Made by a program: the position numbers and the translations under genes
Notes under the pieces: generated by a model
What the model was told of the DNA's origin: nothing
Database searches by the model: none
Seen by the model: the letters and a program-made list of their open reading frames with translations, nothing else
Assembly (NCBI GenBank): GCA_047602725.1
Contig: JBLKON010000001.1
Location: forward strand, 1-28,227
DNA from: Candidatus Woesearchaeota archaeon
GTDB taxonomy: Archaea; Nanobdellota; Nanobdellia; Woesearchaeales; DATGWN01
Length of the DNA stretch: 28,227 nucleotides
Direction: 5' to 3'
In this document: positions 3,538 through 9,745 of the stretch, one piece after another
Numbering within the stretch: position 1 is the stretch's first letter
Layout: each line of letters starts with the position of its first letter

Positions 3538-4617
3538 ATGCATATCCTTTGTATGTGTTCCTTTGGTCTTAATCGAAGTAAGTTTTGTGCTATGCTTTTA
3601 AGCCTGTATGGTTATACAACCCAATATGCTGGTATTAATGCACAAGCTCCTAATCCAGTTTCTTGTGCACATCTCCATAATGCACAACACATTATATGTA
3701 TGAGACCACCTATCTATGAAGCATTTACTCAACAATATACCACTAAAAAACCAGTAACTATACTTGATATTAATGATAACTATAAAAGATATGATACACA
3801 GGCTCAACACATTGCTCAACAAAATATTTGGCATTTTCAATATAGGTATGTATATACACAAATATGGGAACAAGTGCAACAATTTGTATTATCTACTCCT
3901 GTATATCGACAATGGAAACATCCTACGTCACAAGAATTGGCATACATTAAAAGTGTAGAAATAGCAGTAAGTTTTTTGTTATATCATCATAAAGACCTTA
4001 TACGTACTATACTTGTTAAAGGAAGTTTTGTAAGACGCGAGATGAATAAAAAAAGTGACATTGATGTTGTAGTAATACTCAAACACAATAAAGATATTAT
4101 GATGCTTCAACAATGGGTGCAAACTTACAAAGAACTGTTTAATCCTGTTGAATTTTCAATATATTCGCTGTATGAAATACAACGTAATAAAAAAAGCAAA
4201 CAAAGAAATGATAAAAAACTTACCTCACCTCATACAAACGATCAACTACAGCATATTATGCATATATGGGGTAAGCATCTTTATGTTACCACATATCCTA
4301 AACGTTCAGCACAACAAAGATATAGAGGATTACAACATGCGTTTATCAAAGATTTTATTCCACTGTATTACAAAGGTGAATTTACCTTTAGTTCTTTTGT
4401 AAAATGTGTCTTATGGTTAGCTGAGTACGAACAACAAACGCAAGGTAAACAACCTAGTGCAACGTGGCAACAATTAGCTACAACATTACCTAAAAACCAT
4501 ATAGGAAAACTAGCGTATGAGTATAGAATGCATCCTGTTAAAGATGTTGCTATAAAGCATGCTTTTGTGAAAAAAGTAGAAAGCTATCTATCTAGTTCTT
4601 TTGATAAACAAGAGTAG
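3538..4617 (+). CDS. Fusion of LMW protein-tyrosine-phosphatase-like domain and Pol-beta-type nucleotidyltransferase domain
   Basis: N-terminal CSFGLNRS (Cx5RS P-loop) with later LDINDNY; central GSFVRR...SDIDVVV (GS + DxD); helical C-terminal region. Confidence 0.7.
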   Translation: MHILCMCSFGLNRSKFCAMLLSLYGYTTQYAGINAQAPNPVSCAHLHNAQHIICMRPPIYEAFTQQYTTKKPVTILDINDNYKRYDTQAQHIAQQNIWHFQYRYVYTQIWEQVQQFVLSTPVYRQWKHPTSQELAYIKSVEIAVSFLLYHHKDLIRTILVKGSFVRREMNKKSDIDVVVILKHNKDIMMLQQWVQTYKELFNPVEFSIYSLYEIQRNKKSKQRNDKKLTSPHTNDQLQHIMHIWGKHLYVTTYPKRSAQQRYRGLQHAFIKDFIPLYYKGEFTFSSFVKCVLWLAEYEQQTQGKQPSATWQQLATTLPKNHIGKLAYEYRMHPVKDVAIKHAFVKKVESYLSSSFDKQE

Positions 4618-5086
4618 TCATTCTTTTTGCATGGGTATCCATGACATGACCAGCATCAATACCTTTTAAGCAATGTGGAACGTGTGCATATAATAAATCT
4701 TCAACACATTTTTTTCGTTGTTGCGCATTACTCATATAAGCTTGACGTGTAGGAAATATACTTAACAATCCATCAACTGCTTTTTGGGTTAATGCTGGAG
4801 TAATGCGTCCATGTATTGCTTCACATAAAGTATCTAAAGTAGTTTTTTGAATAGAATATAAAAGTTCAGATTTATTATCACCTTGAGTATGATATGTTTT
4901 GGGATAGTTTTCTTCTGTTTTTGCGTTTATAATAATAGGACTATCAGGTAACAATACATCTAATGAAGTTTCAAAAAAAAGTATATTAACTATACCGGGT
5001 AATTTTTTATTATCAGGTACTTTTGGCATATGTGCGACATATAATGCATATATTGCATCAAAAGTATCTTGTTTAACTGTTCTCAT
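4592..5086 (-). CDS. Hypothetical protein
   Basis: 164-aa ORF overlapping the upstream same-strand gene by 14 nt; no recognisable motif. Confidence 0.6.
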   Translation of the reverse strand: MRTVKQDTFDAIYALYVAHMPKVPDNKKLPGIVNILFFETSLDVLLPDSPIIINAKTEENYPKTYHTQGDNKSELLYSIQKTTLDTLCEAIHGRITPALTQKAVDGLLSIFPTRQAYMSNAQQRKKCVEDLLYAHVPHCLKGIDAGHVMDTHAKRMTTLVYQKN

Positions 5087-5594
5087 GTTTTTTTAGTAAA
5101 GCACTTGCTTTTTGTATGGTTGCTATGTCTTGCTCATTAAAGCCCCAATCTTTTGGATTAGGTGTGGCATGTTTCACAATATAATCATACATAGCGCATT
5201 TTGTTTGAATATACAAGGGTAATAGTTCTTGGGGAACAATACCTAACATTTCTTTTTCTGCCTCATAAGTCCTATCTGGATGTTCTATACCATATTCCAT
5301 AAATATCTTATATTCAGCTAAAGCAAAGTAGGGTTGAAGTTTTTGATCTATATCTTGACTCACACCAATGACATAGGGATGCTCCTCTCTTGGATGCCCT
5401 TTTACACACTCATCATCAGGACTTAGCATTGCACGCATAACACCATAAGGTGGAGCTAAATTAAATATTTCTTGCATAAATGCCTGAGGTACAGTATAAT
5501 AATGGATTCCCAATACATCTGAGTCTTGTTTTGTGCCAACTTGTTCAAAAGCATCTGCACAATTGACTAGTTCTTCTAATGTGTTGTATTGCAT
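5073..5594 (-). CDS. Hypothetical protein
   Basis: Start moved to MQYNTLEE (ATG 5594, preceded by AAGGT) so that it follows the 5599 stop instead of overlapping it; no recognisable motif. Confidence 0.6.
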   Translation of the reverse strand: MQYNTLEELVNCADAFEQVGTKQDSDVLGIHYYTVPQAFMQEIFNLAPPYGVMRAMLSPDDECVKGHPREEHPYVIGVSQDIDQKLQPYFALAEYKIFMEYGIEHPDRTYEAEKEMLGIVPQELLPLYIQTKCAMYDYIVKHATPNPKDWGFNEQDIATIQKASALLKKHENS

Positions 5595-5598
5595 GGTA

Positions 5599-6186
5599 TT
5601 ACCTTTTTTGAAAAAAATATAATAATGTTTCAAATTGCATGGGAACTAATCTTGAAAAATCTCTCTGAAGTCTAATTTTATTTCTTTCTTGTATCAAAGT
5701 TCCAATACCGGTAAAATCTTCATCTTCTAATAATTGACTTGCATTGTTATGATAATTATTAGCTAACACATAGCCACTTTGCCTCAAATATTTAGTTAAA
5801 TCACTAGAATTAATACAAGGATTAAGTGCTATTACCAAATCAAATTCAGAAGGGGGAACATAAGTTAGCACATCATGTTCAACAAATTCTCTAATACTGT
5901 GTTTTCTCATAGCTTGAGCAACTTGAGGATCCTTATCCATTAATGTTACTTGCGCATCTAAAAAAGACTCCAATGGACTGATATCTGCATTACAACTAGG
6001 ATAAAAAACGCGACGGGGGTTATATATGGTATCTCTAAAAAAAATATATTGTCTCACTAAATCTGGTGAGCTTGTAGGTACTAGTTCCACTCGATCTATT
6101 TTGATTTTCTTTTCAAAAGATGAAATAGGATTACCATTTTCGTCATGCTGTATCCATTCTTCATATTCTTCTGTCATTGGTATCAC
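5599..6186 (-). CDS. Class I SAM-dependent methyltransferase-like protein
   Basis: VFYPSCNAD (motif I-like), TLMDKD (motif II acidic), HDV, FDLVIALNP (motif IV-like). GTG at 6186 or ATG at 6177. Confidence 0.55.
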   Translation of the reverse strand: MIPMTEEYEEWIQHDENGNPISSFEKKIKIDRVELVPTSSPDLVRQYIFFRDTIYNPRRVFYPSCNADISPLESFLDAQVTLMDKDPQVAQAMRKHSIREFVEHDVLTYVPPSEFDLVIALNPCINSSDLTKYLRQSGYVLANNYHNNASQLLEDEDFTGIGTLIQERNKIRLQRDFSRLVPMQFETLLYFFQKR

Positions 6187-6209: not shown

Positions 6210-7580
6210 TTACTTATAAGTGTTTCTATTCTTTTTTGCGATATGTATCAACAATTTTTCAACCCCAAACAAAACAAGAATAAACACCCCAACAACTACA
6301 GTAGGGATAACATTATGAAGTAAGCTTGTAAACTGTCCATTTGCAAACATCAAAATGTACACCACAATACCAATGATAAGACTTATTGCTAGCATATAAT
6401 CTTTTGCCTTTGTCATTTTTTTAGTGTATACACCTAAAAATACAATGGGAGAAAGCAAAAACAACAAAGATGTTATATTGATTGCAAAAGTGACAAAGTT
6501 TGTAATGAACATTGCCAATACAGTTGCTACAATAAATAAAAGTATAAGAACTACCTTTATGGATTTTGTATAACGAGTCGTCTGATTATCCTTGTCTATT
6601 CTAAAAATATTAGAAACTAATGTTGATGAAAACATGTATGCTTGTGAATCCAGATTCGACATTATTAATGCTAACATAAGCACTGACAACAATGCTCCAT
6701 ACACTACTGAGACACTTCCATCAAGCAAGCTCATTATTATTGTCTCTGGTCCTATCTCTGGAAAAGTTGAAAACAAGGATATGACCAAAAATATGATCAA
6801 CGTATACATGATAATATATACGACTGGTAGTGCGTATAATGCACGTTTTGCAGTTGTGCCTGACTTAGCCGTAAAAATTCTCTGCCACAAATACGGTAGT
6901 GGATACATCACTAAAAAACCAAACAGAAATGCCCCAAGCGTTGTTTGGAACCCCATAGTATAGAAAGTTGGATACATGTTTCCAATTGATGCAAATGATC
7001 CATAAAGCAATAATCCAACCATCAGTGCTAATGTAAGAATCATCTGAAAGATATCAGTATTAACAACTGTAGCATACCCTCCGATTGTGACATATGCTCC
7101 AACAAATGCTGCAATACAAAGTATAGCAAACCATAAAGGAATTGGAAGCATTGTGCTAAACATAAGACCGCATACATAAATTAGATTAGCTACAAAAGCA
7201 AACATGACTGCTAAGATAATGACGCTAGTCAAGTATGAGATTCTCTTTCCTAATCTATCTTCTATGAAATCATTCAATGTGAGATATTTTGAATTGCGTA
7301 TCCTATTAACTTGAAATGACAGCAATAAAAAAGCACATGCAAATCCAATTGCCAGCCAATATAATCCAAAGTACATACTTGAGGCAAGAACAATAAGTGT
7401 GATGAGTCCGCTTCCATCAATGCTTCCTATAAACTGAGAAGACATCGTACCTAAAAAAGAGACCTTGTTATTACCTGAAATATATTTTTTTTCAGTCTCG
7501 TTTCTTCTAGAATATATCGTTATTGCTATTATGATTATGACATATAATAAAATACTTATTCCTATTGCAATGTTTAACAT
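6210..7580 (-). CDS. Sodium:solute symporter (SSS) family transporter
   Basis: 456 aa, about 12-13 hydrophobic helices; TLNDFIEDRLG, YVTIGGYATVVNTDIFQ, WQRIFTAKS and ALIMSNLDS match SSS conserved segments. Confidence 0.85.
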   Translation of the reverse strand: MLNIAIGISILLYVIIIIAITIYSRRNETEKKYISGNNKVSFLGTMSSQFIGSIDGSGLITLIVLASSMYFGLYWLAIGFACAFLLLSFQVNRIRNSKYLTLNDFIEDRLGKRISYLTSVIILAVMFAFVANLIYVCGLMFSTMLPIPLWFAILCIAAFVGAYVTIGGYATVVNTDIFQMILTLALMVGLLLYGSFASIGNMYPTFYTMGFQTTLGAFLFGFLVMYPLPYLWQRIFTAKSGTTAKRALYALPVVYIIMYTLIIFLVISLFSTFPEIGPETIIMSLLDGSVSVVYGALLSVLMLALIMSNLDSQAYMFSSTLVSNIFRIDKDNQTTRYTKSIKVVLILLFIVATVLAMFITNFVTFAINITSLLFLLSPIVFLGVYTKKMTKAKDYMLAISLIIGIVVYILMFANGQFTSLLHNVIPTVVVGVFILVLFGVEKLLIHIAKKNRNTYK

Positions 7581-7592
7581 TTCATATTTACC

Positions 7593-8465
7593 CTATTCTG
7601 AATTTATAGCTTCTATTTTTCCTAATTTCAAACACTCCATTTCGCTTATGAGATGCGGATTTTCTTCAAAGAATTTCCAGCTTTTTGAAGTGTAGTGCGC
7701 ATCCAACAGTAGCTTTCCGTTGGAGAGTATCCTCATTTCTTTATGAGGAGATGCAACATTAATTGCAAATTTATTATCATAAATGTGCCAATTTTTGGTT
7801 ATTTCTTTACAATCTCTCATGCAATCCCTATAATACTGAACCTGCTCTGATATACCATGCTCCCACGTATCAGCAATTTGTGTATATATGGGAATATTGA
7901 TTTGAGACGACAAACGTAATGCAAAATTTTTCATATCACTCCAATCTATTAATGGTCTCTCATCGTCACTCATCAGCGGATCTAACAGAATTCTATTTAG
8001 TTTTGGGAATTGCAGATGAAGCCTGTTTATATCTGCAAACAAATAATCCATATTCTTTTCAACTGCTATTGAAATAGCATCTACGTACTCTCCTTGAATA
8101 TTTATTGAAGTCCTGCCACCTCTATTGTGATGCAAATCATAAGAGACTCCAATGGTCAATTGATTATTTTCAATAAATGCAATCAATTCTGTGCTTAATT
8201 TATGGCTACCATTGGATTGAATATATCCTTTGATATCACTTCGAGTAGAGAGTACTTCTATGATATTCTTCTGCCCTAAAGGAAGTGTAGGTTCACCTAA
8301 ACCGACAAAAAGCAGAGTGCTATTGAGCGGAATATGCTCTATTAACCTTGGCACCAACTTTGTATCTGGAGCCAACCTTTGTTTATGCAACCGTTCAGCT
8401 ACATTACAGTTTGGACATCTCAGATTACATGTCGGACTTATTTCTACACCTATAGTTACAGTCAT
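7593..8465 (-). CDS. Radical SAM enzyme
   Basis: CNLRCPNC (CxxxCxxC) at residues 13-20, GLGEP (GGEP-like), QSNG, VSYD motifs of the partial TIM barrel. Confidence 0.85.
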   Translation of the reverse strand: MTVTIGVEISPTCNLRCPNCNVAERLHKQRLAPDTKLVPRLIEHIPLNSTLLFVGLGEPTLPLGQKNIIEVLSTRSDIKGYIQSNGSHKLSTELIAFIENNQLTIGVSYDLHHNRGGRTSINIQGEYVDAISIAVEKNMDYLFADINRLHLQFPKLNRILLDPLMSDDERPLIDWSDMKNFALRLSSQINIPIYTQIADTWEHGISEQVQYYRDCMRDCKEITKNWHIYDNKFAINVASPHKEMRILSNGKLLLDAHYTSKSWKFFEENPHLISEMECLKLGKIEAINSE

Positions 8466-8587
8466 ATTCCTATTTGATTATCTCTCAGTACAATTTCATT
8501 GTCATCACTATTTTCAGAGCAGCATAATTCCATTTGCTCTTGTATTAATTTTGGCACTTTGTTATATGCTCCTTTTATTGCTGCCAT
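8462..8587 (-). CDS. Small peptide 2, 41 aa, MAAIKGAYNKVPKLIQEQMELCCSENSDDNEIVLRDNQIGI; putative radical SAM substrate/precursor
   Basis: Hand translation. GAGGTG SD 7 nt upstream, inside the end of peptide 1; its TGA overlaps the radical SAM ATG (ATGA); paralogous to peptide 1. Confidence 0.75.
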   Translation of the reverse strand: MAAIKGAYNKVPKLIQEQMELCCSENSDDNEIVLRDNQIGI

Positions 8588-8589
8588 TT

Positions 8590-8697
8590 TCATTCACCTC
8601 TTTTGTTATAATTCATTTCACTATCTGTTGTCTTGCATTGAAGTTCAACTTCAACAACTTGCGGTACTTTGTTGTGTGCGCCTTTGATAACTCCCAT
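8590..8697 (-). CDS. Small peptide 1, 35 aa, MGVIKGAHNKVPQVVEVELQCKTTDSEMNYNKRGE; putative radical SAM substrate/precursor
   Basis: Hand translation. AGGTGA SD at 8703-8708, TATA-like TTTATATA at about 8737-8744 on the minus strand; paralogous to peptide 2. Confidence 0.75.
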   Translation of the reverse strand: MGVIKGAHNKVPQVVEVELQCKTTDSEMNYNKRGE

Positions 8698-8809
8698 AAT
8701 TATCACCTTATTTACTAATAGATGGTAAATTTTAATATATAAAATAGATTAATATATTATATAATTTATAGAACATTTTATATACTAATTATTATTTATA
8801 TTAAGTAAT

Positions 8810-9745
8810 ATGAAATTTTTATTTAAAGAAACCTATCGTAAAGACAGTCCAATCAAGCTTTCGACTACAGACAAAAAATTAATTCAACTCTTACTTATTG
8901 ATGCACGCACCCCTCTCAAAACACTAGCAAAACAATTACATGTATCAGAACCAGCTATACATTACAAAATAAAATCACTACAAGAAAAACAAATTCTACT
9001 CACCCCTGTAACATATCCTAATATACAACTCCTACAAAACCCCTTTTATATTGCAGAAGTATCAACACTTTTTGGCTCAGACACATTAGAAAACATAAAA
9101 AAAATACAATCTATAAAAGAAATTGCCATACAAATATGGTACTCTGGCCCTTATAATTTAATTTTTTCAATACAACATGAACAACCGCTACTTATTTTAC
9201 AAAAAATTCACAACATCATTCCCATAAAAAACTATCGCTTACGAAAAGTTATTAATATGTGGTACAACCCTCCCCATCTATTTTATAATACAAAAAAACA
9301 CGTTTCCTATACTACTAATACTCCTATACTTAATGAACGACAGAAAGAAATTTTTTCGTACTTAACAGAACATCCACTAGCAAGAATTTTGGAAATCCAC
9401 CACCAACTTGGCTATGCAACAAAAACCATCCAACAAGATCTACTTTTTTTATCTAAAGATGCAATACGAGCTATACTCTATCTTCCTAATGCTTGGGCTT
9501 GTCAGCATGATATCATTTCTACTTCCTTTAAAGTTATAGGTGATATACCAACATTAATACAACAACTCTTAGTATTACCTCAAACTAAAAATGTGTGGGT
9601 ATGTGATCATGAGTGGAATCTGAATGTTGCTTTTTGGGTAAAAAATCCAAGTGAACTTACTCGAATTATTGCACAATTAGAACAACAACATACGATTTTA
9701 GATGTTGACTATGGTATTGCAACCAAAATGATTGGTAAACTCTAA
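8810..9745 (+). CDS. Lrp/AsnC-family transcriptional regulator with two tandem HTH-RAM units
   Basis: LSTTDKKLIQLLLIDARTPLKTLAKQLHVSEPAIHYKIKSL (HTH 1); LNERQKEIFSYLTEHPLARILEIHHQLG (HTH 2); each followed by a RAM-like alpha/beta segment. Confidence 0.8.
   Translation: MKFLFKETYRKDSPIKLSTTDKKLIQLLLIDARTPLKTLAKQLHVSEPAIHYKIKSLQEKQILLTPVTYPNIQLLQNPFYIAEVSTLFGSDTLENIKKIQSIKEIAIQIWYSGPYNLIFSIQHEQPLLILQKIHNIIPIKNYRLRKVINMWYNPPHLFYNTKKHVSYTTNTPILNERQKEIFSYLTEHPLARILEIHHQLGYATKTIQQDLLFLSKDAIRAILYLPNAWACQHDIISTSFKVIGDIPTLIQQLLVLPQTKNVWVCDHEWNLNVAFWVKNPSELTRIIAQLEQQHTILDVDYGIATKMIGKL

Follow-up and report, generated by a model that had tools for sequence, protein, structure and literature searches.

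Two short genes on the minus strand of an archaeal genome were found to lie immediately upstream of a gene encoding a radical S-adenosylmethionine (SAM) enzyme, and the peptides which they encode are very probably a substrate or a partner of that enzyme. They are located in a stretch of 28,227 nucleotides of a Candidatus Woesearchaeota archaeon (GenBank assembly GCA_047602725.1, contig JBLKON010000001.1, positions 1 to 28,227), analyzed at its full length and referred to here as the window; its features are listed in Table 1. As far as comparison of sequences can establish it, both small genes (peptide 1 and peptide 2) were shown to be real, to be under purifying selection and to be linked to this enzyme family up to the level of gene fusion. 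We consider it rather likely that they represent a hitherto unnamed peptide family which serves as the dedicated substrate of the radical SAM enzyme encoded downstream. That the peptides are substrate rather than subunit, the position at which they would be modified and the chemistry involved are what we infer from the comparisons below.

Pairing of the peptides with the enzyme

For every family locus that could be fetched, the sequence ahead of the enzyme gene was read, with duplicate records counted once; the genomic context of P0007, P0021, P0025 and P0029 fell outside this survey, and P0029 was scored as fused from its protein sequence alone. The motif shared by the two peptides accompanied the enzyme in 21 of the 22 family loci read, in 16 as a separate peptide and in five fused to the enzyme. 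The separate-peptide loci are the window, L007, L008 (the same as L014 and L020), L011 (the same as L015), L013, L016, L019, L024 (the same as L025), L026, L027, L032 in genome G405, L033, L034, L035, L036 and L037, and in these one or two small motif-bearing open reading frames (ORFs) on the same strand are present directly upstream of the enzyme gene, their stops lying 1 to 45 nt ahead of it or overlapping its start. The cassette therefore has the organization by which a system for peptides that are made by the ribosome and modified after translation (RiPPs) is recognized, namely a short precursor-like gene beside the enzyme in a pairing that is conserved across homologous loci. The preliminary description of this DNA had tied the peptides to the radical SAM gene and had proposed to give up this tie if no homologous peptides stood beside related radical SAM genes; such peptides, or fused tails, were looked for and are present, and the claim stands.

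In the five fused enzymes (L004, the same as L017; L005; L018, the same as L022 and L030; L021; P0029) the module makes up the first 12-16 residues of the enzyme itself and a separate peptide gene is missing, while a Shine-Dalgarno site precedes the fused start in both loci for which upstream DNA was read (L004 and L005). In the enzyme tree they formed one supported clade (98/98), which points to a single fusion event kept over a long divergence and provides a Rosetta-stone link of the peptide to the enzyme. Because of the nearly complete pairing, the translational coupling described below and this fused clade, comparative genomics could hardly tie the peptide more firmly to the enzyme. An explanation of peptide 2 as an enzyme N-terminus split off by a frameshift was rejected, since separate peptides with their own stops occur in 16 loci. 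A profile of the window's peptide subfamily, which excludes the fused tails of G003 and G004, gave no convincing match in 60 related genomes, and a search of an index of 5.8 billion proteins with a peptide profile returned only those peptides which had already been reached via the enzyme.

The two small genes

Both frames and their Shine-Dalgarno sites were recovered on the minus strand as the preliminary description had given them, and so was the overlap of the stop of peptide 2 with the radical SAM start. An alternative in-frame ATG for peptide 2 lies two codons upstream, at 8593, and the stop of peptide 1 overlaps it, likewise as ATGA. This upstream ATG is the less likely start; the Shine-Dalgarno site abuts it and the N-termini of the family match the shorter form, for which reasons the start MAAIKG is favoured. 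Peptide 2 retrieved peptide 1 at E = 0.007 when used as a query within the genome, and of the 11,896 frames in the 847-kb genome that begin with Met and are 25 aa or longer, only 7 fitted a loose N-terminal motif pattern, both peptides being among them. The two genes had been described as unannotated, which holds for peptide 1, absent from the public protein collection, and not for peptide 2, which is already present there as a called 41-aa protein (P0165). Neither the window peptides nor six related ones reached the threshold of any Pfam or NCBIfam profile.

In the stretch IKGA[H/Y]NKVP (residues 4-12 of both peptides) four codons are identical, four differ synonymously (ATC/ATA, GGC/GGA, GTA/GTG and CCG/CCA) and one exchanges His for Tyr, exactly as had been noted earlier; after this stretch the peptides continue with ELQC and ELCC, offset by two residues. 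The selection at the protein level that had been read from this pattern was borne out by the synonymous-only differences together with ratios of nonsynonymous to synonymous substitution (dN/dS) well under 1. These were about 0.23 for peptide 1 against peptide 2 in a global alignment, and 0.32, 0.27 and 0.50 for the orthologous pairs L011a/L013a, L011b/L013b and L007/L008, respectively, with dS of 0.8-1.1 in all three orthologous pairs.

The motif module

The module comprises about 12 residues in the order hydrophobic-x-(K, less often N/Q/A/P/T)-G-(S, also A/V/T/G/C/N)-x-x-x-(P or V/L/I)-P. In an alignment of about 37 instances the Gly (G6 of peptide 1) is the single residue that never varies, and the Pro is near-invariant. 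About half of the instances, among them those of both window peptides, have an aromatic residue or His two residues past the Gly; the others often carry Ser, Val or Glu there, and one L011 peptide has no aromatic residue at this position in any of its three repeats. A peptide holds from one to five copies, with one copy in the window, G405, L026, L033 to L035, L007 and L008, two or three in L011, L013, L019, L024 and L027, and five in L037. The module begins at residue 2-3 of single-copy peptides; those of L024 and L037 open with 17-28 unrelated residues, after which the first repeat follows.

Alignment placed the window peptides in a subfamily with those of G405, L035, L033, L034 and L026, in which one module is followed by an acidic segment (..EVEV..) that is probably helical. 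The ELxC of the window peptides is part of this acidic segment and its Cys is not conserved. The closest relative of peptide 1 is the 36-aa peptide of G405, which shares the pattern MG[VI]IKG..K[VL]P..VEV and has no Cys; Cys is likewise absent from the peptides of L007, L019, L027, L036 and L037, and in L026 and L034 a Cys stands immediately after the invariant Gly. The peptides of this family are short and hydrophilic and, judging from models, probably disordered, and the two relatives that were modelled (a fused tail and the L037 peptide) came out at low confidence. A look-alike search of the ESM Atlas with the five-repeat peptide gave nothing meaningful. At L016 the peptide homologue is a 117-aa protein in which the N-terminal module is followed by a basic stretch, a hydrophobic membrane-like segment and a Pro/Tyr/Gly-rich tail with two Cys.

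In the preliminary description the shared stretch had been taken as a conserved leader in front of a variable, Cys-containing core. This view found no support, as the stretch recurs two to five times in the peptides of L011, L013, L019, L024, L027 and L037 and serves as the enzyme's own N-terminal tail in one clade, while the peptide of the closest relative and several others do without Cys. Since it recurs inside single peptides and is found on different carriers, the module behaves like a portable unit for recognition or modification and not like a classical leader; what had been called the leader is thus more likely to be that unit.

The radical SAM enzyme and its family

The enzyme is a member of the radical SAM superfamily, having the cluster motif, the SAM-binding and ribose motifs and a partial TIM barrel, even as the Pfam model PF04055 (Radical_SAM) scored 23.4 bits against a cut-off of 29.5. 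C13, C17 and C20, GLGEPT and IQxNG are invariant among the 12-15 family members compared, and an SxDxxH stretch is conserved too. The public gene call for this protein is 253 aa long and begins at residue 38, so that it lacks CX3CX2C; the full frame starts at 8465. No Cys is conserved in the family outside the three of CX3CX2C and Pfam gave no SPASM match, so the enzyme has no SPASM or twitch auxiliary cluster. There was no PqqD-like match in Pfam or NCBIfam and in the model strand beta-1 comes first, without any domain before it, so that a RiPP recognition element (RRE) is lacking as well; the one winged-helix protein encoded nearby is the tandem Lrp/AsnC regulator. NCBIfam maturase models gave weak matches to the N-terminal part of the enzyme, and an enzyme profile found no match among PDB sequences at E <= 0.01. 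The AlphaFold2 model of the window enzyme, with alternating beta and alpha elements, had a predicted local distance difference test (pLDDT) value of 86, and its top matches among solved structures were the peptide- or protein-modifying radical SAM enzymes SuiB, anSMEcpe, EpeE and SkfB (TMq 0.4-0.58); ChlB in addition matched the model of a fused relative, which was a confident one too.

Nine relatives of the enzyme were found in the index of 5.8 billion proteins, and a profile search of 1.84 billion representative proteins gave 21 matches below 1e-30, after which the next scores were at most 67 bits and covered the generic N-terminal half only. This abrupt drop indicates that the family is small and sharply bounded. 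All members belong to metagenome-assembled genomes of the Woesearchaeota, Pacearchaeota or Nanoarchaeia type. The window's own genome apart, 3 of 400 sampled genomes of the phylum carry the enzyme, and a full-length homologue was present in 2 of 60 related genomes (G003 and G004); its distribution is patchy, like that of an accessory gene. A third, weak match in the 60 relatives (G053/L006) and the one at L023 proved to be generic radical SAM proteins outside the family. P0033 (236 aa), a representative of the family, matches over its first 113 residues only, after which an Arg/Ser/Cys-rich tail follows, and its gene call seems to be frameshifted or chimeric. The record that holds L018 is labelled Methanosarcinales; an identical fused enzyme N-terminus (first 120 residues) is found in G192, from the window's own order, and the label is probably a binning artefact.

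Table 1. Coordinates of features in the window and at related loci
Feature	Locus	Position	Strand	Remarks
Peptide 1	window	8590-8697	minus	35 aa; single N-terminal motif copy, then acidic segment
Peptide 2	window	8462-8587	minus	41 aa; paralogue of peptide 1
Shine-Dalgarno site of peptide 1, AGGTGA	window	8703-8708	minus	5-nt spacer to ATG
Shine-Dalgarno site of peptide 2, GAGGTG	window	8595-8600	minus	7-nt spacer; within final codons of peptide 1
Motif module of peptide 1	window	8662-8694	minus	residues 2-12, GVIKGAHNKVP
Motif module of peptide 2	window	8552-8584	minus	residues 2-12, AAIKGAYNKVP
ATGA overlap, peptide 2 and enzyme	window	8462-8465	minus	stop TGA 8462-8464, start ATG 8463-8465
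Radical SAM enzyme	window	7593-8465	minus	290 aa; CX3CX2C at residues 13-20; GLGEPT and IQxNG motifs
Tandem Lrp/AsnC-type regulator	window	8810-9745	plus	double winged helix-turn-helix; divergent from peptide and enzyme genes
Sodium:solute symporter (SSF) family transporter	window	6210-7580	minus	12 nt past radical SAM stop
Three genes	window	4592-6186	minus	195, 186 and 164 aa
Antisense open frame	window	8230-8718	plus	162 aa; covers both peptides and radical SAM start
Peptide of G405	L032	2841-2951	minus	36 aa
Symporter orthologue of G405	L032	583-1947	minus	same position as in window
Three-repeat peptide	L011	3589-3798
Three overlapping unannotated genes	L011	4896-6289	plus	109, 136 and 216 aa
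Peptide homologue with membrane-like segment	L016	3604-3957	plus	117 aa
Five-repeat peptide	L037	1453-1797
Class I SAM-dependent methyltransferase	L037	2724-3239	plus	right after radical SAM gene

Proposed mechanism and alternative explanations

The peptide genes are co-translated with the enzyme through the ATGA coupling. In the mechanism that we propose, the hydrophobic start of the module would dock on the RRE-less enzyme, and the 5'-deoxyadenosyl radical would take a hydrogen inside the G...P segment. No side chain is conserved in the module and yet the Gly is, which argues for radical chemistry at the backbone, at or next to this residue; the likeliest site would thus be the invariant glycine or an adjoining backbone position. 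Alternatively, a turn formed by G...P may present a neighbouring position to the radical. One module would correspond to one modification site, so that each window peptide would carry a single site.

Several observations weigh against a role of the peptides as dedicated substrates. Upstream of L038, the most divergent enzyme, no peptide is encoded, and the N-terminus of this enzyme shows only a KPP half-motif; the L034 peptide is without the proline. The fused tail lies only some 16-20 residues ahead of strand beta-1 and came out as a disordered stretch in the model (pLDDT < 50); going by such models, it would fit a subunit or regulatory role equally well, and its reach in cis to the active site is hypothetical. 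The SPASM or twitch cluster and the RRE which are usual in peptide-modifying radical SAM enzymes are both missing, the structural matches are distant (TM about 0.5), and viperin-like enzymes, which act on nucleotides, match nearly as well and with a lower root mean square deviation. Neither a leader peptidase nor an exporter is conserved in the cassette, the other neighbours varying by locus. Lastly, the locus is present only in DNA runs from lake-water metagenomes, and no RNA run is listed among the sequencing runs that hold it. At L038 (1132-2034, plus strand) a 76-aa gene with a hydrophobic N-terminus comes next.

The clade in which the motif is fused to the enzyme N-terminus, with no separate peptide gene, would also be in keeping with the peptide being a detachable N-terminus of the enzyme (an accessory subunit, an activator or an auto-inhibitory tail) and the substrate lying elsewhere, for instance a small molecule imported by the symporter. 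An enzyme which is without an auxiliary cluster and comes almost as close to viperin-like small-molecule enzymes as to peptide maturases, an importer-type transporter placed after it in the window and in G405, and the lack of a conserved protease or exporter all speak in favour of this explanation. A subunit would, however, not be expected to carry two to five tandem copies of its binding module (L037, L024, L027, L011 and L013) or to be encoded by two paralogous genes per locus, the module can head a 117-aa protein with a membrane-like segment (L016), and the transporter occurs in just 2 of about 22 loci; we therefore regard this explanation as unlikely. The fused clade bears as well on the idea that the small ORFs are regulatory upstream ORFs, on whose conserved N-terminus ribosomes stall so as to tune expression of the coupled radical SAM gene, since in that clade the motif is the first translated part of the enzyme. 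Polyproline stalls ribosomes, a phenomenon connected with a/eIF5A, and many relatives carry a stall-prone PP or PPP; the motif is at the extreme N-terminus, and ATGA couples the ORFs to the enzyme gene. Against this, the window's own peptides contain no PP, relatives reach 75-117 aa with as many as five repeats, purifying selection extends outside the motif (dN/dS of 0.27-0.5 over whole peptides), and stalling needs no two tandem ORFs with diverged tails. At the locus we found neither an Rfam element, no Rfam family matching the peptide or leader region, nor an attenuator-like terminator, and a regulatory role of this kind appears very improbable.

In both window peptides a Cys follows ELx, and the preliminary description had proposed RiPP precursors made up of an N-terminal leader and a Cys core, in which the radical SAM enzyme forms thioether or related Cys cross-links. 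The gene order, precursor followed by radical SAM gene, is typical of such systems, and the Cys directly past the invariant Gly in L026 and L034 would suit the proposal. Known sactipeptide and ranthipeptide synthases, however, require SPASM or twitch clusters, and here just the CX3CX2C cysteines are conserved; moreover, the peptides of six loci (G405 and the five Cys-free loci named above) have no Cys to be linked, and the conserved part is a repeated unit and not a leader. Sactipeptide or ranthipeptide chemistry is thus unsupported, and we see hardly any room for this proposal. Chance open frames in AT-rich intergenic DNA would account for ORFs as short as 35 and 41 aa, and the 162-aa antisense frame, which was taken as spurious as it is not conserved in G405, is open by chance too; homologues in 21 of 22 loci, motif differences that are only synonymous, dN/dS well below 1 and a Shine-Dalgarno site before each peptide effectively refute such an origin. 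Dedicated substrates of the downstream enzyme remain the explanation that we favour.

Neighbouring genes

A divergent tandem Lrp/AsnC gene was found wherever the upstream flank was available, the window's copy being 34% identical to that of L011 over its full length, and this regulator probably controls the peptide and enzyme genes. The idea that it is a siroheme-decarboxylase-like enzyme or an RRE was unsupported; it resembles a widespread type of archaeal tandem Lrp/AsnC regulator. The symporter has an orthologue in the same position at one other locus only, that of G405 (45% identity). The three genes of 195, 186 and 164 aa belong to no Pfam or NCBIfam family, have no counterpart in related loci and are probably outside the conserved cassette. 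A seven-gene operon as the conserved cluster was accordingly rejected, as the transporter alone recurs, and in G405 only.

At the five-repeat locus L037 the next gene after that of the radical SAM enzyme encodes a class I SAM-dependent methyltransferase, which may be a tailoring enzyme in that lineage; the window's 195-aa protein showed no similarity to this methyltransferase. In the clade whose peptides have three plus two repeats, three overlapping unannotated genes come after the radical SAM gene of L011, and none of them matched any family.

Relation to known systems and significance

The cassette is a variant of the known kind in which a radical SAM gene is combined with a peptide gene, and its motif is not that of the sulfatase, glycyl-radical or His-Xaa-Ser systems and appears to differ from that of the triceptides, although it has one trait in common with each of them. 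It is alike to the streptide system (StrA/SuiA with StrB/SuiB, forming a Lys-Trp cross-link) in having a short peptide gene directly upstream of the radical SAM gene, and SuiB was the best solved-structure match of the window enzyme model (E 3.5e-7, TMq 0.54-0.58). The streptide operon, like the window cassette, encodes a transcription regulator alongside. SuiB, however, carries an RRE at its N-terminus and, in a SPASM domain, two auxiliary clusters; RRE and SPASM domain are both absent from the window enzyme, and the window peptides are without streptide's conserved Lys...Trp pair. The anaerobic sulfatase-maturating enzyme (anSME), the second-best fold match and also a weak NCBIfam match, similarly recognizes a short linear motif in an unfolded segment, (C/S)-x-P-x-R, made up of Ser or Cys, Pro and Arg; yet the residue order is S-x-P-x-R there and G-S-x-R-x-P here, the window peptides have Ala at the Ser position, and anSME has two auxiliary clusters, unlike the window enzyme. 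The epimerases EpeE/YydG, which are also fold matches, abstract a backbone C-alpha hydrogen, and this fits a module with no conserved side chain, but in EpeE a conserved Cys serves as the donor of hydrogen and an auxiliary cluster is bound C-terminally; here no Cys of that kind is conserved, and epimerization of Gly would be meaningless.

Triceptide maturases and the His-Xaa-Ser system (HxsA with HxsB/HxsC) resemble the cassette in that peptides encoded next to a radical SAM gene carry a short motif several times; ChlB was among the fold matches, and HxsC matched the window enzyme weakly (E 4e-4) in its N-terminal part only. In triceptides Aromatic-X-X is found at every modified site; here about half of the modules, those of both window peptides among them, have an aromatic residue or His two past the Gly. 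The triceptide and His-Xaa-Ser enzymes have SPASM domains, which the window enzyme lacks. Glycyl-radical activases of the type that activates pyruvate formate-lyase (PFL-AE) are alike in being small and in having no auxiliary clusters; the Gly from which they take the hydrogen belongs to a short loop motif, and Gly is the one invariant residue of the module here. The glycyl-radical fingerprint RVxG[FWY] is nevertheless absent, the surroundings of the Gly being hydrophobic-x-K-G-S with no Arg-Val before it; PFL-AE acts on large enzymes and not on small peptides, and no sequence relationship was detectable beyond the generic radical SAM core. As an analogy only, the substrate peptide of the borosin OphMA is naturally fused to its enzyme, as in one clade here; OphMA is an N-methyltransferase with a C-terminal fusion, while the fusion described here is N-terminal and involves another class of enzyme.

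Our literature searches retrieved no description of this peptide and enzyme family and none of a radical SAM peptide system in DPANN lineages. To our knowledge, archaeal radical SAM peptide systems are scarce. With a single enzyme of about 290 aa, a regulator and no more than one or two peptides, the cassette is minimal, and genome-mining tools keyed on SPASM/twitch or RRE would overlook such cassettes. A repeated module with a single invariant Gly, together with natural fusions, makes for a sharply defined and cheaply testable hypothesis. We tentatively suggest, as a possibility about which we are ourselves doubtful, that the cassette performs a novel radical SAM peptide chemistry with neither auxiliary cluster nor RRE, on the backbone at the invariant Gly of a portable 12-residue tag, whose carriers may be free peptides, a membrane-anchored protein or the enzyme itself, which in that case would modify itself. 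The product in these genome-reduced DPANN archaea would then be intracellular, for example a peptide-derived cofactor or a signal sensed by the tandem Lrp regulator, and not an exported antibiotic. If the chemistry is new, it would widen what a bare radical SAM core does on peptides, and genomes of about 1 Mb would still retain cassettes for peptide modification.

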